Assembly: GCF_058153355.1 (NCBI RefSeq)
Contig: NZ_CM177019.1
Strand: one strand, 5' to 3'
DNA length: 64,000 nucleotides
The notes below the pieces were generated by a model. That model saw only the letters and a list, made by a program, of their open reading frames with translations, was not told where the DNA came from and did not search any database. The stretch's first letter is position 1; the number at the start of each line of letters is the position of its first letter. The position numbers and the translations under genes were made by a program. This document shows positions 6,563 to 14,934 of this stretch, piece after piece.

Positions 6563-7113
6563 AAAACTCCTGCATGGCGCAAGTTAATCACCCGCGGCCA
6601 AAGTTCGAAATAACGCTGCTCTGAAAGCCAGGCGTCAGGATAAAGCGCCATATAGTGTTTGATACGCATCAGCGGCGCAAGAAGCGGTTGCTCGCCACGG
6701 CGATAACTGTCGATAAGCGCCGCCAGCTGCTGGCGTTCTGTGGAATCAATATGTGGGCGAAAATAACCCTGAACGTGCATCAAAACGTTGGTGTGATCGC
6801 GCGGGTTGGCGGGATGAGAAAGCAAAACAATGACGCGTTGGCGGTACTGGTTGTAATAGTCATCCAGATTTTGCCACTGGTGAATATCAGCCACAAACGG
6901 GCCAAGTTTGCGGTATTCCGGCTGGGAATGAGCCAGAAAGACGAGTTTATAGCGGCTGTGATAATCGTTGAGCGCCCCGCGCGTTAAGCCATGTTCTTTC
7001 AGTCGATGTAACTCATAAAGCGCGAAGATACGGATTAAAGTGCTTTCATCAAATCGTTGCTGATTCATTACTGCTCCTGAACGGTTTACAGGAGTAAGTG
7101 TAGACGTTGGCAA
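6559..7113 (-). CDS. ybgA: DUF1722 protein YbgA (co-transcribed with phr)
   Basis: ORF whose stop overlaps phr start by 4 bp; true start may be an internal ATG (K-12 protein is shorter than the 184-aa maximal ORF). Confidence 0.7.
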   Translation of the reverse strand: MPTSTLTPVNRSGAVMNQQRFDESTLIRIFALYELHRLKEHGLTRGALNDYHSRYKLVFLAHSQPEYRKLGPFVADIHQWQNLDDYYNQYRQRVIVLLSHPANPRDHTNVLMHVQGYFRPHIDSTERQQLAALIDSYRRGEQPLLAPLMRIKHYMALYPDAWLSEQRYFELWPRVINLRHAGVL

Positions 7114-7128
7114 ATGATGTTTGTGAAG

Positions 7129-7986
7129 TTAATCCTGTTGTAGCAGGGCAAGATTACGAAAGCACGCTCCCCGCAAGGACTGACGCCAGGTAGTTTCTGT
7201 CCATGGCTGCCCTTTCCATTCACACGTGAAATCAATAAGTTCATCAGGGACATCGCAAACAATGTGAAGACGGATTTCTTCTCTGCCGTGACTCTTTTCA
7301 CTAATTGCGTAACTGTCATGCTCTGGATTATTTAATTCTTTCAGTGAGAATTTTTCCTCAAAGGCTTTATTTAGCCGCCCCTGGTTTCCTTTTACAGCGA
7401 ATAAATAATCACCTCCCTGTTTTTGTATCTTCTCTGCAATATCTTTCTGGCAACCCATCGCATCAGTTGTGATGATTTTTCCTTTAATATCCAGCATGTT
7501 AAGAAGTTCAGGGATAGCTGTAATTTCATTTGATTTCTCATCCGTCCTGATCTGTCCGATGACCAGACTGTGCATTGTTGAGAACGCACTAATGACATGA
7601 ATCGCTCCCCTGCAGCGACTCTTGTCATAAGAATGCCGGAGCTTTTTTCCATCAATTGCAATGACGTCTTTATCATCTGAAGAATGGCAGTCACGCATCC
7701 AGTTAATAAAGCACTCGTGAAATTTTGCAGGACTGATACAGGATACAACTCTGGCAATGGTATCGTGAACAGGAATACCATTTTCAAAATCACCCTATTG
7801 CTTCAAAAAATCGAGATGTGTTTCCCCAAAATCCTCTATATCTTCTCAACCTTCTGCACCCGAAATAACGGCGCAAATAGTCAACAGTAGAATATCCGAT
7901 AATTTATGTTCCACTTTCCAGGCTTGTCTGTAATCGGGGATAATAGAAATATGTTCCATCAATTTTTTAAGTACCATTTTGTTCTC
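7129..7986 (-). pseudogene. Decayed H-repeat (ISAs1-family) transposase: frameshifted and internally deleted
   Basis: N-terminus [43 protein letters not shown] then stop; body in two overlapping frames (7392-7793 and 7129-7698); the canonical C-terminal peptide [12 protein letters not shown] appears out of frame after ...EWKG, indicating an internal deletion. Confidence 0.8.
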
Positions 7987-8370
7987 CTTAATTATGTAAG
8001 GAGTATTTGATCATGTATAAGCAATAAAAAACAGCTTCAGGTAATGAGGAATATCTCAATTTTTAAACATAAAATGCGAATTGTTTAGTACAAAAAAGCA
8101 GCGTTACGTGATCTTTTCCTGCCATGGGTCTTTACCACAGCAGCTGGGGTTGTTTGGGACCGACTTCCGACAGCAGATCCCGGTGAGCCTGCCACCATCT
8201 CTTCACAAGCTTATGCTTATTACATGCAAAACGTCCCGTTTTGCATCTTTGTGCCTACGGCACACGATGATCTTTCCCTGAGGAGTCATACTTTGTTAGG
8301 ATAAAAAACCTTTAAATAGCTTTCCTACCTTCCAATAAAAACCACAGAATCAGCAATGTTTAAATTTCAA

Positions 8371-9192
8371 TCAGTATTGAGTTTCATTTGTGATCTCTAC
8401 ATTCACTCCTGATGGCTTCTCGCTAAATAAATATCTCATACTCTCATTCTCCATAATCACGGATATATTTAACCCTCCATGAATCCATTGATATGTAATA
8501 TTTTTATCATCAATCTTATAACTAAAATTCCCAATTGGTAACTTTTCCTTCAGATAATTATTCTCCTCATAACTAAGTGCTAGTAATTTATCATAGGCAC
8601 CTTTTAAATCAAAACCCTCAAAATAGCAATGTTCTTTTGATGAACCATCAAATTCTTTTCTGGGATTAGCATCATGACACCAAGTCGACCATTTTTCTTT
8701 TTTTTCCTCAGAAGTATGTTTTTTTTCATTGAAAAACAGCACATAATATTTCTCTGGGATTATTATCTGATCATTAATTTTTAAGATATCTCTATATGGC
8801 CCAGGACATTTATGAACAGAATCCATAATGGATATTTCTTCAGGAAAAAGTTTGCCTTCATGTTTAAATAATTTCCTGTACATACCAACTGTTGTTTGTG
8901 ATAAGTAATATGACAAGGGCTTTTTTTTAACTTCAACATAGTCAGTCGAGCATACGAGACTATTTTCCAATGAATAATCATTTATCGTTAGCTTTCGCCC
9001 ATCCATATTTATCACTACCTTACTGTATGTTTCATCAAGGGCACTTATTATAAGCGAATCATGTTTACCAAAAACATCGATATCTGAAACATTATGATAA
9101 ATCCATACGGTATTTTTAGTATTATCATTAGAATATGCGATACCATGAATAAAAAAAATCATTAGAAAGCCCATAAAAAATTTACCGCGCAT
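8371..9192 (-). CDS. Secreted (signal-peptide) protein of unknown function; candidate immunity protein for the upstream effector
   Basis: 273-aa ORF, N-terminal hydrophobic signal peptide (MRGKFFMGFLMIFFIHGIAYS), very AT-rich and K/N/E-rich; AAGGA ribosome-binding site; starts 19 bp after the effector stop. Confidence 0.6.
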   Translation of the reverse strand: MRGKFFMGFLMIFFIHGIAYSNDNTKNTVWIYHNVSDIDVFGKHDSLIISALDETYSKVVINMDGRKLTINDYSLENSLVCSTDYVEVKKKPLSYYLSQTTVGMYRKLFKHEGKLFPEEISIMDSVHKCPGPYRDILKINDQIIIPEKYYVLFFNEKKHTSEEKKEKWSTWCHDANPRKEFDGSSKEHCYFEGFDLKGAYDKLLALSYEENNYLKEKLPIGNFSYKIDDKNITYQWIHGGLNISVIMENESMRYLFSEKPSGVNVEITNETQY

Positions 9193-9211
9193 ACAAATTC
9201 CTTAATGTAAA

Positions 9212-11977
9212 TCAATGTGATGAATCATAAACATTATTCAAAAATAGATTTTGTTCTTTTCGGCGTCGTATAACAAGGCCAGCAACTCCGCCATTTGTAA
9301 TATCAAGAAATTCATTGGAGGCACCTATATAATCCTTTTGATTAAGTTTAGAATTCAAATTCGGTGCCTTACTCATGCTCCCCATATTAAACAATAAACT
9401 TATTAACGCATCAAATTCGTACTGATATAAATCCACACTCACTGTTCTTTTAAGCTCACTAACAAAACCAGATAAACGCTCTTCAAATAACTCATCAGCT
9501 TTAGCAATTGTTATTCCATGCTGAAATTCTTCTGGTAAAACTATATCATTGCAACGTTGTGTAGCAATTAAATGTCCATAACCTATAGTACAGTAACCTT
9601 CTGAATCATTATATGCTGTTAGTTGTAAATATTCCCATTCTTTTATAAAACCCTTACCTTTATTTGATACATTCAAATCTGCAATGGCGATCCTTTCAGC
9701 AGTTTGTTCTTCGTTAAAACTATTGATGTACCCCTCCATCAATATATCAATTGGATCATGTAAATCATCCCGTCTATAAAATGGAGGTATTTGTGTATTA
9801 TTCGGCGGAGGCGCTCCATTGTTTCCTGGATAGTATTCAAAATGCAACATATAAACCACTTCTTCCCCAGGGATTATAACTGGAGGCCTCCCTGTATCAG
9901 GTTTAATCATCAACCCTGTTTTGGCAATTATTGCCCCTTGCATAATATGATCATTAATCTTTACTAAAATACTTGATGGATCAACTTCACCATACCGCAC
10001 ATAGAAATGCCGACCATCTCTAGTCGAGTGCTCAATCGTAACTTGCCAAGTACCGTAATAGTATCGAGAAATAGCTCTTACTATTCCGTTGCAAACCGAA
10101 ACAATATCAGACTTCGGTTCCGTATATAGATCACGCGCTCCATGTTTTCTATTACCATTATTACGATTTCGTCCAAATATAGCTTGAGAGGCATTTCGAT
10201 CTGTCAAGGCAGCAGCCCAAAAATAATTTTTCCACTTTCCATTTTTGTCATTATTAGGTTTTACTTTTAAAGGAAAAATAATTTGATTTGATTTTTTCTG
10301 AGATAATGAATCTAAAAACACAACCGGATGAAAATGCCACACAGCATCATCACTATTAAACGGAGATACCCCGCTCATCCACTCCAGATCCAGCTGCCAC
10401 TTCTCACAGTATGCCACTTCCTCTGTATCCAGATCTTTATAAAATCCTTCCCACCGCCCTGTCGAGCGCCCTCCGTACCATTCGCTGTGGTGTTTAACTA
10501 TCAGATGATTCACCACATTTCTCACCAGTGGTTCACGCACGATCAGCGCCTGTCTGATCTCTTCCTCCGTCACTTTTCCATCACCGTCCTGATCCATACC
10601 CGCCATCAGCTCACGATAAAAGGGCGGTACCTGCTCATACAGCCACTCATCTCCCTGTTCTGCGGCACGGCTTATTGAGTCAAACGCTTCCGGCACCCAT
10701 CCTTCGTACGGGCTGTACGTCATGTCACCGCTGCTGTTCTCCTCCAGCGGTTGAAAACCCAGCTTCAGTAAATCATACTGTCCGGCCTCTTCAACATCCT
10801 TTTGTGGCAGCCAGCCGGTTCCGGTGATATTAAACCACCACTGCTGCGATTCATCCGTGACTGGTGTCGTGGCTTCCCGCGGAAGAACGCGCTGAGCACC
10901 CAGCGTGGCTGCGGTTGCGGTAAATACCTCCTGTCCCGGAACGGCCTGCCGGGTGTATAAAATTATCCCTTTTGGTGCCAGAACAGTCCGTTTTTCTCCC
11001 TTAACGCCTGCCGGGTTGGATAAGAACTTTGGCATATTCGGGTCTGTACTCAGAACCTCCAGATGGACGAACCACTCGCGCTCAATCTCACCGCTTCCCT
11101 CGCCAGGATAATCCTCGCATCCCATAAATCCGACCGGTGTTCCGGCACTGACTTTCCACTCTTCCGTTTCGTCGACCGTCTGTACCGAGTCAAAAATGCC
11201 TTTTGCCTTCGCCTTCTGCATCCACTCAGGCATCAGCATCTGTATTTCGCCATCTGACTCCATCAGATCCGGATCCAGGGTCACCCAGTACTGCTCATTC
11301 CCCGGTTTATTGCCTTCCAGCAGGCGAACCAGTCCGAATGTCGTCAGGACCGGCTGGCCGTTATTGGTCACGTAAAAACGTCCGGTCCGGGATGACACAA
11401 ACCGATCTCCCGCATTAAGTGTCCTGTTTCCGCTGATTTTCGGGGGTATCCAGTACGTGGCATGATCTCCGCTTTCCTGCCCCTCGGGAAGGCCGTTCTT
11501 TCCCGGGATGTATCGGTGCAGCAATATGCCACCATGCCCGGTTTTAACTTTATAGCAGGGGGAGCCGGGATAATCGTTCACCGGGGCCAGATGCATATAG
11601 AGACAGTAAAATTCCAGCCAGCTTTCTTTTTTTTGCGGGTCTGGCTGGCACTGCGATTTCACCAGAACAAATGTGCTGCTGTAACGGAGTTGCTGCCCTT
11701 TGTAGGGGCCTTTCAGGTAATCATTATTTATCCGGTACGCCGCAATGGTGCCATCGGCCATAAACTGAAGAGGAACCGGTTCTCCGGTAGCGGCGGTATC
11801 CGGTTTCAGGGCTGATAACGGATTAGACACGTCACTGATATGTATCCCGCCGTGCCACAGCCCGTTTCCACCCAGCAGCCAGGTTCCGTGCGCTTCTTTG
11901 TCAATAAGCCGCATTATCTCATCCAGTGAGCGAAACTCTTTGCCTTCTTTATCCCTGATGGGATGGCTGATTTTCAT
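9212..11977 (-). CDS. Candidate T6SS cargo effector: multidomain peptidoglycan hydrolase (M23/LytM-like domain plus C-terminal T4-lysozyme-like GH24 domain), with an EF-hand-like loop
   Basis: 921-aa ORF starting 9 bp after the vgrG stop with an AAGGA ribosome-binding site; C-terminus carries the phage-lysozyme signature EWEYLQLTAYNDSEGYCTIGYGHL; middle region has KHGARD (HxxxD) ... YMLHFEY (M23-like); DQDGDGKVTEEE calcium-binding-type loop. Confidence 0.7.
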   Translation of the reverse strand: MKISHPIRDKEGKEFRSLDEIMRLIDKEAHGTWLLGGNGLWHGGIHISDVSNPLSALKPDTAATGEPVPLQFMADGTIAAYRINNDYLKGPYKGQQLRYSSTFVLVKSQCQPDPQKKESWLEFYCLYMHLAPVNDYPGSPCYKVKTGHGGILLHRYIPGKNGLPEGQESGDHATYWIPPKISGNRTLNAGDRFVSSRTGRFYVTNNGQPVLTTFGLVRLLEGNKPGNEQYWVTLDPDLMESDGEIQMLMPEWMQKAKAKGIFDSVQTVDETEEWKVSAGTPVGFMGCEDYPGEGSGEIEREWFVHLEVLSTDPNMPKFLSNPAGVKGEKRTVLAPKGIILYTRQAVPGQEVFTATAATLGAQRVLPREATTPVTDESQQWWFNITGTGWLPQKDVEEAGQYDLLKLGFQPLEENSSGDMTYSPYEGWVPEAFDSISRAAEQGDEWLYEQVPPFYRELMAGMDQDGDGKVTEEEIRQALIVREPLVRNVVNHLIVKHHSEWYGGRSTGRWEGFYKDLDTEEVAYCEKWQLDLEWMSGVSPFNSDDAVWHFHPVVFLDSLSQKKSNQIIFPLKVKPNNDKNGKWKNYFWAAALTDRNASQAIFGRNRNNGNRKHGARDLYTEPKSDIVSVCNGIVRAISRYYYGTWQVTIEHSTRDGRHFYVRYGEVDPSSILVKINDHIMQGAIIAKTGLMIKPDTGRPPVIIPGEEVVYMLHFEYYPGNNGAPPPNNTQIPPFYRRDDLHDPIDILMEGYINSFNEEQTAERIAIADLNVSNKGKGFIKEWEYLQLTAYNDSEGYCTIGYGHLIATQRCNDIVLPEEFQHGITIAKADELFEERLSGFVSELKRTVSVDLYQYEFDALISLLFNMGSMSKAPNLNSKLNQKDYIGASNEFLDITNGGVAGLVIRRRKEQNLFLNNVYDSSH

Positions 11978-11986
11978 GTTCAGTCC

Positions 11987-14186
11987 TTATCGTGAGAATC
12001 TTCCCGGCCGTTGTGGCGGTACCTTATCCTGCTGGGGAGGATCAAAGGCTTCCTGTACACTTTTCCGTGGTGGCTCCGCCCCTTCAGTTCCAGGTCCGCC
12101 ATTGTCATAATCTGCCAGCGCTTTCAAAACCGCCGGTCGTAGCGTCGGCACCGGCGTTCCCGGACTACCGCCGCTATTGAGATTGATTTTCGGCCCGACG
12201 ATGTCCACGCCCCCTGAATGGATGACCACAAACGAACCACCCACCTTTAGGGTGATTTTACCGCCACTCTCCAGTACGATTTCATTCCGGACCTTCATTC
12301 CCAGCGCACCGGTAATCTTCCTCGCCAGGTCGCCCTTCACCTCCAGACTGTGCTTTCCCTCCACCAGGCTGATATGGTTCCCCGTCGTCTTATGCTCCTG
12401 CTTCCCTTCCACCGTCACTTTACGGTCGTTTCTGACATACAGGCCGTCATCGTGACTCACGCTCACCGTCCGGTCATTCGTCACCTTCAGCGTCTGGTCA
12501 TTACGTACCGTTATGCGCCGGTCGTTCGCCACCGTGATACTCTGGTCGTGACCCCCTTCTTTTCTGGTGCCGACCTCAACCGTCTGCCCCTTCACCACCC
12601 TTATCTTCTGGTCGTTACCGATGGTCTCCGTATGGTCATGCTTCACGTCCGTCGTCCGGTCGTTAAGCACCTCCGTGTCCATGTTCTTCTGCGCGTGGAT
12701 ATACACCTGCTCACTGTCCGTCGCATCCTCGAAACGCAGTTCATTAAAGCCGCTTCCTTTATAGGTCTTCGAGCGGATGGTCATCTGCGTCCGCGTGCCC
12801 GGTAAATCCCCCGGTGAACGGTTATCTTCATGGTAGGTCCGCCCCGTCACAATGGGCTGGTCCGGGTCGCCGTTCAGAAAGTCCACTATCACTTCCTGAC
12901 CCACACGCGGTATCGCCAGATTGCCGAACCCCGGTCCCGCCCATGCCTGCGACACCCGTATCCAGCACGAACTCTCCTCCGTCATCCCGTGATAACGGTC
13001 CCAGTGAAACTTCACCCGTACCCGGCCATGCTCGTCGCAGAATATCTCCTCACCCTTCGGCCCGGTCACGATGGCACTCTGCGGGCCGTCCACCTTCGGC
13101 TTCGGCAGCGGCGCGTGACGCCACGTCCTGTCTGCCGGTATCACCTCAAACTGATTGCTCAGTGTCGTCCCTTCACCGTGACTCCCGTGCAGCGCCTGCG
13201 GCTGTTCTCCCCGCAGTGTGCTTCCCACAACCTGCCATTCCCGGTTCAGCGTCTCTGAGGGATGGCCCGTCAGCCGGAACCGCGTTCCCGGCCACAGCCG
13301 CGCCGTGTTACACACCCCGCTCGCCGTCTCCGCCCCGTTCCGCCACCCTTCCGTCTGGTAACGCGCAAAATCCTGGCCATGCTGCTCATCCTTGAAACGC
13401 CCCGGATAATCAAATATCTCGTACTGCGTTCCCTGCCCGTTCAGGCTCTCCCCGTCATGGCTGTAGTACCCCGGCCACCCCGGCGTTTTGAACGTATAAT
13501 CCTGCGTCTCCACCGACGCCACGCTTATCTGCGCACGGTAACGAAACTCACTGATGTACTCCGTCGTTCCCCCGGTCGTGGTATTCGGGTTAAACGCCAG
13601 CGCCCCCATTCCCGTCAGCCCCGCCACGTCATCACACACCGCCAGCTTCTGCTCCGGCCCTTCCTGACCGCAGCGCTCATAAAAGAAGATACCTTCCTCC
13701 GCCCACAGCCGGGTCAGGAATGCCAGGTCGCTCTCCCCGTACTGCACGCAGAACTCCCGCGCCGGGTGCGCCTCATAGAACAGCGGCATCCACGCCGTCA
13801 CCCCGTTCTCTCTCAGAAGCTGTGCTGATATCGTCTGAATGTCCTGCTGCTGGAAGATACGGAAGTTCTGCCGTAACCCTGCCCGCCACAGCGGCGGGCT
13901 GATGCTCAGGGAATAACGCATCTGCCAGTCGTTGTTCTCACCGAGCTGCACCTCCGTCACGATACCGCTGACGTAACGCTGCGGGATATCACCCTGCCAG
14001 ACCGTCAGCACCGCGCTCTTCTCCAGAAAATCCTCCGCCATCAGGTCGGACAGCCCGCTGGCGATATCCACATCCAGGATGAACGACGTGCAGTGGTGCT
14101 GGTACAGACGGAAGCTCACCACCGCCGTCGCCATCTCCACGATACCGTCCACCGACAGCGTGAAACGTAATCCTTCTGAGGACATA
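11987..14186 (-). CDS. vgrG: Type VI secretion spike protein VgrG (gp27/gp5-like)
   Basis: About 733 aa from MSSEGLRFTL; characteristic VgrG N-terminus, gp5-like beta-helix repeats (VTVxNDRxxTV...) and Pro-rich C-terminal tail; the maximal ORF extends 11 codons further upstream. Confidence 0.85.
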
Positions 14187-14360
14187 TAAACCCCATAGCT
14201 ACCGCACTCATGGTGCAAACCATACGGGCTTATAAGAAAGGCTTAAGTGAGATATCTGCCAGATAGCAACTATTAGGAAAATATTTATATATATTTCATG
14301 AATATATATTTCGGTTGGTATAACGGTGTCTAAATATTCCTCTGAACATCTTCCTGATAC

Positions 14361-14394
14361 AAAAAAACCGCCAGCGTCTCCGCTGGCGGTTTTC
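14361..14394. terminator. Rho-independent terminator downstream of ybfA
   Basis: GC hairpin accgccagcg/cgctggcggt flanked by A-run and T-run. Confidence 0.6.
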
Positions 14395-14415
14395 TTTGAA
14401 CGTCATGTTTAGCAA

Positions 14416-14622
14416 TCAGTAAAAATCACCGGTTGCCTTTTCGGCCTGATCCATCCACACCGGTTTATCGCTGGTTTTCGACCAGACGCGATGCAGGTAG
14501 CTGTAAAAGCGGGCGCGGTCTTTCCAGAAAAGCATGAAAGGCAGCGCCAGGACGCCCGCTGCAACCGCATAAGTACGGCGTAAAAAGATAAGCCATGCAG
14601 GATATTCTCTGTAGAGTTCCAT
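14416..14622 (-). CDS. ybfA: DUF2517 small membrane protein YbfA
   Basis: 68-aa ORF recognised as YbfA. Confidence 0.8.
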
Positions 14623-14830
14623 ACTTTTCTCCCCCTTTTGTATCTACCCGGTGAATGGCACCGGAAAAATGAATTTGTTTATCTGATGAAAATAGTACCG
14701 CCTTTTGTGTAATTTTACTACTCATCCGACCACTTATTTTTGCTTATTGATGGTTTATTTACATTCACTCTGTAATTAAGTTACACAAAAGTTAAATTAA
14801 TACTAAACATTAGTTAAATCATGGCTTTTG

Positions 14831-14857
14831 CCATTTTTATACTTTTTTTACACCCCG
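14831..14857 (+). promoter_or_regulatory. T-rich KdpE operator in the kdpFABC promoter
   Basis: ccatttttatacttttttttacacc about 80 bp upstream of kdpF; recalled KdpE binding site. Confidence 0.5.
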
Positions 14858-14934
14858 TCCGCAGATTTTTGCGAAATCTTTGCAGCCAGAATTCTACCCT
14901 TCCGGTATCACTTTTAGGCCACTGGAGGTGCACT

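Follow-up and report, generated by a model that had tools for sequence, protein, structure and literature searches.

The 64,000-nucleotide stretch of DNA analysed here (contig NZ_CM177019.1, assembly GCF_058153355.1; hereafter the window) contains, at the kdp-ybgA (rhsC) site of an Escherichia coli-like chromosome, an orphan vgrG island in which a VgrG spike protein of a type VI secretion system (T6SS) is encoded directly ahead of a 921-amino-acid (aa) effector. The question raised by this pair is how the effector is loaded onto its spike, and which part of the VgrG holds it. An earlier note on this DNA had proposed that a low-complexity Gly/Pro-rich tail of the VgrG acts as a cargo-docking extension, and had read direct VgrG-effector binding from the absence of an adaptor gene between the two; it left unstated that all of these features lie on the minus strand, and it missed the effector's WHIX domain. 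By analogy with homologous systems, this WHIX-class effector quite probably has a dedicated VgrG spike whose short terminal peptide binds the WHIX domain directly, with no adaptor. Because the loading of a WHIX effector on the C-terminal tail of its VgrG is a known mechanism, published in 2025, the locus mainly confirms that mechanism in E. coli orphan vgrG islands. The refinement added here is that a Pro-rich hinge in the tail serves this VgrG lineage as a universal swap point, and that the address for the cargo seems to be a peptide of about a dozen residues at the C-terminus. Should it be confirmed, an address code this short would help to predict spike-WHIX effector pairs and to engineer T6SS cargo delivery.

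Anatomy of the VgrG tail

The VgrG scored well above the cut-offs of two curated models (TIGR03361, 586 bits with a cut-off of 186; TIGR01646, 424 bits with a cut-off of 122). The mechanical open reading frame (ORF) runs from a TTG at 14218 to 11987 and has 743 codons' worth of protein (743 aa); the likelier ATG start given in Table 1 agrees with a 732-aa gene called at this position in a second E. coli record (L084, 98% identical) and with the homolog in the E. coli H1 locus. Pfam placed Phage_GPD, Phage_base_V and Gp5_trimer_C on the protein, the last of these stopping at ORF residue 633. What follows is a 61-residue low-complexity tail without a Pfam domain, and no toxin domain is fused to the VgrG C-terminus. 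Loading of the kind used by enteroaggregative E. coli (EAEC) VgrG1, through DUF2345 and a transthyretin-like domain, was considered and ruled out, as DUF2345 reached E = 1.2 at best in Pfam and no folded domain lies past the helix.

With residues numbered on the 732-aa VgrG, the tail ends in ...NLNSGGSPGTPVPTLRPAVLKALADYDNGGPGTEGAEPPRKSVQEAFDPPQQDKVPPQRPGRFSR ahead of the stop codon, and its sequence as quoted in the earlier note matches the translation exactly. Proline makes up 12 of the 61 residues compared with 3.9% of the rest of the protein (binomial p = 3e-6). Glycine makes up 8 of 61 compared with 10.1% (p = 0.27), which is no enrichment, so the tail is Pro-rich and not Gly/Pro-rich as first described. 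It divides into a Pro-rich hinge directly after the beta-helix, a variable acidic spacer containing Gly and Pro, and a terminal peptide that includes a conserved core, VPPQRPGRFSR (Table 1).

Judged by its distribution among relatives, the hinge is a generic, lineage-wide swap point and is not specific to this cargo. When the region 11600-12200 was used as a query, 624 of 5426 E. coli genomes matched it only over the first ~78-94 nt, with the match ending in or just past the hinge. E. coli VgrGs that share the hinge (69-95% identity, up to ..PAVLKALAD) carry quite different C-termini: in STEC299 the same hinge is followed by a tail and then by DUF4123 and Tle1 genes; in CFT073 and others by a longer, seemingly folded extension, transthyretin-like by eye, and then an M35 peptidase gene; and in a sister VgrG at the kdp-ybgA site, 95% identical up to ..ALAD, by a fused Pyocin_S/DNase. 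These proteins are alike in VgrG body and hinge and differ after it, having an adaptor-recognised tail, an extension that looks transthyretin-like or a fused toxin in place of a candidate WHIX-docking peptide. Across their final 12 residues, VgrGs that combine this backbone with other cargo are 0-17% identical to the window VgrG. The comparison points to the last 11-18 residues, especially VPPQRPGRFSR, as most likely the cargo-discriminating element. Of the docking extension proposed in the earlier note, the C-terminus as probable dock stands, and the Pro-rich stretch, being shared by VgrGs with other cargo, does not.

The effector carries an N-terminal WHIX domain

The first 561 residues of the effector are 99% identical to WP_000703217.1, an E. 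coli "hypothetical protein" that is included in the WHIX dataset (tree and C-terminus files) of Fridman et al. 2025 (PMC12135965), where the domain is named for its WHxxxH motif. Beyond residue ~561 the two proteins are unrelated, WP_000703217.1 (the effector of the H1 locus) being annotated as chitinase/GH19 by its sources. A second listed protein, WP_032211049.1, which those authors give as an example of a "lysozyme-like" C-terminus, ends nearly as the window effector does. With phmmer, the window domain also matched P0222, P0209 and P0230 (E = 1e-34 to 1e-37; P0209, 1e-37; P0222, 3.7e-35), subclass II proteins whose N-terminal M23 domain is Awe1-like. On these sequence comparisons the effector N-terminus is a WHIX domain, the 99%-identical listed protein and the matches to proteins with Awe1-like N-termini serving as a proxy for the authors' own profile, for which homology across at least 70% of the domain is asked. 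Pfam returned no match on the first 450 residues. MIX, FIX, RIX and PIX-type N-terminal markers had been considered as well, and were dropped once the WHIX domain was identified.

The invariant WHIX columns (W41, H42, G43, G44, H46 ... H305, E307 ... W547, H548, H550, P551) gather at residues 1-132 and 215-556, with a variable stretch between. H42, G43, G44 and H46 are invariant in both a 29-sequence and a 38-sequence alignment; W41 is invariant in the former and conserved at 90% or above in the latter. An AlphaFold2 model of the domain (predicted template modelling score 0.79) shows an M23/LytM-like core. A search with the domain at E <= 1e-3 returned 664 cluster representatives, some with an extra N-terminal domain, and across hundreds of WHIX-headed Enterobacterales proteins the C-termini swap among GH19, pesticin-like, N-acetylmuramidase, GH108, CHAP, and M23 plus lysozyme modules. 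The junction between the two halves of the window effector is visible in base composition: G+C content is 56-65% in vgrG, 51-56% in the WHIX part, 31-38% in the toxin part and 29-33% in the putative immunity gene, and it drops near 10300 (residue 556), close to where identity between the two E. coli effectors ends (residues ~556-561).

Carrier termini across unrelated scaffolds

Species-representative genomes were scanned with the WHIX alignment, which yielded 76 loci, all of them in Enterobacterales. Among these, the candidate address peptide is found again on unrelated VgrG scaffolds, PAAR proteins have a comparable tail with a hydrophobic-Ser-Arg end, and the terminus varies with the WHIX clade. 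The closest WHIX domains (67-73% identity) come from Citrobacter, Pantoea, Buttiauxella and Lelliottia, where the carrier is a different VgrG of ~790 aa with T6SS_Vgr and DUF2345 domains that is 25% identical to the window VgrG. These DUF2345-type carriers lack a long Pro-rich tail and present the terminal peptide ~35 residues past DUF2345; they end in ..LVPPQRRGR[FI]SR, followed by TAAGGA, 6 nt and the ATG, exactly as in the window. DNA homology between the two kinds of locus starts only ~33 nt before the stop codon. Over the last 12 codons, comparison with two of these loci (L006, L007) gave 6-7 synonymous and 2-3 non-synonymous differences and, as most of the codon differences are synonymous, the constraint acts on the peptide.

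The carriers of other WHIX clades have termini of their own, such as ..TRNIPSR, ..DG[NV]MSR, ..HTGSISG, ..ISKPLSN and ..SSKSFND, the last mostly in subclass II, where an immunity gene lies between vgrG and effector. The terminus classes are RFSR/RISR, IPSR, xMSR, SISG, PLSN and SFND for VgrG carriers, and LLSR or IFSR for PAAR tails. Three loci have a PAAR carrier (L023 and L027 from Siccibacter; L030 from an Erwinia metagenome-assembled genome) that matches NF033420 at ~123 bits and has a ~45-residue tail ending in ..ALLSR or ..AIFSR, and in L023 and L027 a VgrG encoded further upstream has the terminus ..PDAPDRR. This arrangement suggests that PAAR tails are able to serve as WHIX carriers. 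More distant Awe1-like loci keep the same design, in which a low-complexity tail of ~55 residues, rich in Ala, Pro and Gly, links the end of the beta-helix to a short terminal motif. Within E. coli, comparison of the window with the H1 locus shows that the C-terminal half of VgrG and the WHIX domain move as one cassette: both are ~99% identical between the loci, against ~65% for the VgrG head, and the toxins are different.

The vgrG-effector junction

The tight spacing reported in the earlier note was borne out: the vgrG stop codon is TAA at 11989-11987, nine spacer bases (GGACTGAAC) occupy 11986-11978, and the effector ATG is at 11977. The effector's own AAGGA site is likewise present, at 11988-11984, where it shares bases with the stop codon and ends 6 nt ahead of the ATG. 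All six loci of alignment A3, which come from five genera, have the TAAGGA, and wherever the gene directly ahead of a subclass I WHIX gene is an intact vgrG, the gap is 9-21 nt. Scanning of the junction strand found no promoter-like or terminator-like sites, and a regulatory RNA or terminator at this position was dropped from consideration.

As 9 nt cannot hold an ORF, an intervening gene is impossible, and DUF4123, DUF1795 and DUF2169 gave no match in the island ORFs that were scanned (VgrG, effector and immunity protein by Pfam and NCBIfam; the ISAs1 fragment by NCBIfam), in agreement with the earlier note. The lack of an adjacent adaptor gene is not enough to infer direct binding, since an adaptor may be encoded in another part of the genome. 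The claim of direct binding agrees instead with published homologous systems and with the comparative data above.

Comparison with known systems and proposed loading

The closest experimental precedent is VgrG4-Awe1 of Aeromonas jandaei, a subclass II "double-blade" system, in which the Awe1 WHIX domain alone suffices for secretion and can be co-precipitated with VgrG4, an interaction that is lost when the last 14 residues of VgrG4 are removed (PMC12135965). The truncated VgrG4 is itself still secreted, while Awe1 secretion and killing are lost; binding of VgrG4 to WHIX could be reproduced in E. coli BL21, where Aeromonas adaptors are absent, and AlphaFold-Multimer places VgrG4 residues 684-694 (..KS..KVSFSGR) in the WHIX cavity (PMC12135965). 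A literature search found no later structural work on a WHIX-VgrG complex. The window pair resembles this system in having a WHIX domain with the WHxxxH motif, an effector gene downstream of VgrG, a peptidoglycan-targeting toxin and a neighbouring immunity gene with a signal peptide (by eye in the window), and Awe1-like loci (L089, L092) also have a Gp5_trimer_C-type beta-helix and a flexible low-complexity tail. A requirement for the C-terminal VgrG residues, with no need for an adaptor, may by analogy be a further likeness. The two differ in that the window effector is of subclass I, with an N-terminal WHIX domain, no upstream immunity gene and a 9-nt gap; in the terminus (..GRFSR in the window, ..KVSFSGR in VgrG4); in the cargo, which is M23-like plus lysozyme in the window and a glucosaminidase in Awe1; and in setting, the window locus being an orphan island and VgrG4-Awe1 lying at the end of a T6SS cluster.

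In the second system, VgrG2-TseP of Aeromonas dhakensis, TseP-N binds VgrG2 directly (PMC11893102), and direct binding to the upstream VgrG would be expected of the window effector by analogy. Both effectors have an N-terminal H-x3-H motif, an M23-like fold and an EF-hand, then a C-terminal lysozyme, with a G+C step between the N and C modules. TseP-N is a demonstrated Zn-dependent amidase, and the window effector has an extra M23-like module between WHIX and lysozyme. A third set, the Enterobacterales DUF2345-type loci (L006-L009, L011-L019 and others), shares with the window the terminus VPPQRxGR[FI]SR, TAAGGA and the 9-nt spacing; in L006-L009 the WHIX domain is 67-73% identical and the carrier is the ~790-aa VgrG described above.

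A different solution is reportedly found in EAEC, where VgrG1 is said, in work by Flaugnatti et al., to load Tle1 directly through a C-terminal extension without an adaptor. Direct cargo binding by a VgrG C-terminal extension would be common to that system and, by analogy, to the window pair. The EAEC extension includes DUF2345 together with a transthyretin-like domain that is folded, and it carries a phospholipase; on the window side, a short linear peptide on a tail predicted to be disordered is proposed to meet the WHIX cavity.

We infer from the homologous systems, for both direct binding and a role of the terminal residues in delivery, the following sequence of events. vgrG and the effector gene would be co-transcribed, with the effector ribosome-binding site embedded in the vgrG stop codon. 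The VgrG trimer would present its short C-terminal peptide (..VPPQRPGRFSR-COOH) on the Pro-rich hinge and a flexible spacer of roughly 40 residues, and the effector would bind that peptide directly through its N-terminal WHIX domain, whose M23/LytM-like core would offer a cavity; from such binding it would follow that one effector rides the spike tip without an adaptor. Once fired into a neighbouring cell, the effector would attack peptidoglycan with its M23-like and lysozyme modules, and possibly with the WHIX domain itself, as reported for TseP-N, while the predicted periplasmic 273-aa protein from the adjacent gene would protect the producer.

Several observations weigh against this reading or limit it. 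An AlphaFold2 single-chain fusion was modelled from WHIX residues 1-556, a (GGGGS)6 linker and the last 30 residues of the carrier with a free C-terminus, using 29 paired rows. The WHIX domain folded well, and only the last four tail residues rose above a predicted local distance difference test (pLDDT) score of 50, the last block having a mean of 54. When all tails were reversed as a control, the C-terminal block fell to 37 and the same small rise appeared at the reversed motif beside the linker, so the signal in the fusion tracks conserved columns and not docking, and the model was discarded as evidence for or against docking. In addition, TseP-C also bound VgrG2 (PMC11893102), so contacts outside the WHIX domain and the tail may exist. 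The correlation of terminus similarity with WHIX similarity (Spearman rho = 0.79, 406 pairs) favours the reading, but is not independent proof of it because adjacent genes are co-inherited. No T6SS core genes were found in the 64-kb window, and whether the strain has an active T6SS bears on the reading. The fusion is informative on the spacer, which is probably disordered: tail residues 703-728, overlapping the C-terminal half of the spacer (residues 703-714), had pLDDT below 50 (block means 24-37) with the cognate tail, and pLDDT was likewise low outside the conserved motif with the reversed one.

Alternative explanations

A bolder explanation, which we regard as rather unlikely, is that the terminal 11-18 residues form a portable, clade-specific address tag that would be sufficient to load a cognate WHIX effector from any spike onto which it is grafted, whether either VgrG scaffold or PAAR, and that would dock as a pseudo-substrate in the degenerate M23/LytM catalytic groove of WHIX (H42, H46, H305, E307), coupling loading to enzyme latency. 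If so, the effector would be released or activated on meeting prey peptidoglycan. Such a tag would account as well for the behaviour of TseP mutants: those altered in H-x3-H or nearby residues no longer have a role in T6SS assembly, while the amidase-dead H339A mutant retains it, an observation that is consistent with the tag and is no proof of it.

It is quite improbable that the tail is a flexible spacer only, with the effector held by another VgrG surface (the beta-helix or the gp27 head), by PAAR or by an unlinked adaptor. Two thirds of the tail are generic or poorly conserved, the fusion model gave no specific docking signal, TseP-C too binds VgrG2, and some WHIX effectors follow tailed PAAR proteins instead of VgrG; an adaptor could moreover lie in the rest of the genome, the analysis covering the 64-kb window. 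Set against this, the terminal 11 residues are conserved with protein-level constraint on two unrelated VgrG scaffolds, the PAAR carriers too have a C-terminal tail ending hydrophobic-Ser-Arg, and the 14-residue truncation of VgrG4 was enough to abolish a binding that needs no Aeromonas adaptor in BL21 (PMC12135965).

The island might alternatively be a decaying, functionless orphan cut off from a T6SS core, with the tail-effector coupling a relic. The lack of core genes in the window and the ISAs1 fragments at the island border fit such decay, as do the same effector being N-terminally truncated and orphaned behind a different VgrG in other strains, the Escherichia whittamii copy with an in-frame stop and a truncated vgrG, and the presence of the intact tail-junction-WHIX stretch in only 3 of 5426 complete E. 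coli genomes. Nevertheless, the vgrG, effector and immunity ORFs of the window are all three intact and full length, and the trio is also intact in two further E. coli records (L084, L088). Orphan vgrG islands far from a core cluster are commonly functional, and we give decay a low probability. Lastly, retention of the vgrG 3' end for nucleotide-level reasons, either as a translation-initiation or coupling signal for the effector or as the recombination scar of a cassette, is hardly credible: the invariant TAAGGA with its 9-nt spacing and a start of inter-scaffold homology that resembles a cassette boundary would suit it, but the differences in the last 12 codons are mostly synonymous third-position changes that keep the amino acids, the same terminus accompanies WHIX domains that are only ~70% identical, so recency is no explanation, and more distant clades keep the tail-plus-terminus design with different sequences.

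Genomic setting and neighbouring genes

The first 7 kb of the window (ybgI, pxpABC, dtpD, phr, ybgA) share 95-98.5% identity with almost every complete E. coli genome, and kdpABCDE, speF-potE, pgm and seqA lie past the island. From kdpA to ybgA, the island reads vgrG, the 921-aa effector gene (11977..9212), the 273-aa putative immunity gene and ISAs1 remnants, all on the minus strand (Table 1). The exact VgrG and effector sequences are absent from a collection of 15 billion proteins, in which the immunity protein alone was matched.

Table 1. Features of the vgrG island and its borders, in window coordinates.
Feature	Position	Strand	Basis or remark
vgrG (tssI), 732 aa	11987..14185	-	likely start is the ATG at 14185
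Pro-rich hinge after beta-helix, aa 672-692 (GGSPGTPVPTLRPAVLKALAD)	12110..12172	-	conserved in VgrGs with other cargo
Variable acidic Gly-/Pro-containing spacer, aa 693-714 (YDNGGPGTEGAEPPRKSVQEAF)	12044..12109	-	loosely alignable with other E. coli tails
Terminal peptide, aa 715-732 (DPPQQDKVPPQRPGRFSR)	11990..12043	-	candidate WHIX-docking motif
Conserved core VPPQRPGRFSR, aa 722-732	11990-12022	-	recurs on DUF2345-type VgrGs
Junction: stop codon, Shine-Dalgarno-like AAGGA, 9-nt spacer	11978..11989	-	
WHIX secretion/loading domain, effector aa 1-556	10310..11977	-	99% identity to WP_000703217.1
WHxxxH motif, W41-H42-G-G-I-H46	11840-11857	-	sequence
EF-hand at WHIX end, aa 455-478	10544-10615	-	EF-hand_1, 9.8e-4 (Pfam)
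Toxin part, effector aa 557-921	9212..10309	-	Pfam and G+C drop
M23-like module, aa 611-688	9914-10147	-	Peptidase_M23, 4.3e-5 (Pfam)
Phage-lysozyme module, aa 779-908	9254-9643	-	Phage_lysozyme, 7.5e-25 (Pfam)
Putative immunity gene, 273 aa	8371..9192	-	19 nt downstream of effector; hydrophobic signal-peptide-like N-terminus (by eye)
ISAs1 (H-repeat) transposase remnants, island boundary	7129..7977	-	NF033564 transpos_ISAs1, 7.7e-56, on 7129-7698
86-codon ORF upstream of vgrG	14465-14725	-	by synteny with L084, counterpart of the 68-aa DUF2517 (YbfA-like) gene

The putative immunity ORF matched neither Pfam nor NCBIfam, and the exact 273-aa protein occurs in E. coli, always behind the same toxin module. 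A short ORF at 7846-7977 adjoins the ISAs1 remnant and, judged by eye, is a putative N-terminal fragment of ISAs1. On the other side of the island, the 86-codon ORF gave no match in an NCBIfam scan; with its syntenic assignment, it is not a T6SS adaptor.

Outside E. coli, the module has its closest relative, with a 95% identical WHIX domain and the same tail, in Escherichia whittamii (L005, 4044-6310). This copy looks decayed, with a vgrG ORF of 202 codons and an in-frame stop near codon 33 of the WHIX gene.

Four E. coli records with the same kdpA-DUF2517 ... ybgA-phr site as window positions 7100-14900 (L081, L085, L086, L087) carry a 1151-aa VgrG, the hinge-sharing sister described above, in which ..ALAD is followed by fused Pyocin_S and Col-Pyo_DNase domains and beside which stands a Colicin_Pyocin immunity gene. 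Past an ISAs1 fragment, the same records have a 551-aa, N-terminally truncated effector orphan without the WHIX head, together with an identical copy of the window's immunity gene, an arrangement that resembles the displaced-toxin arrays of Rhs loci. Just 3' of the immunity gene, L081 (8143-9396) and L082 (2772-4019) encode a group II intron-type reverse transcriptase (RVT_1 and GIIM), at a position where the window has only ISAs1 remnants. At the yibF-selA site of E. coli MFDS1022581 (L001), a tandem pair of vgrG islands contains a WHIX/GH19 effector, a 136-aa gene and an ISAs1 fragment, followed by separate "EF-hand domain" and "N-acetylmuramidase" ORFs that resemble the 3' part of another WHIX effector, left behind as an orphan.

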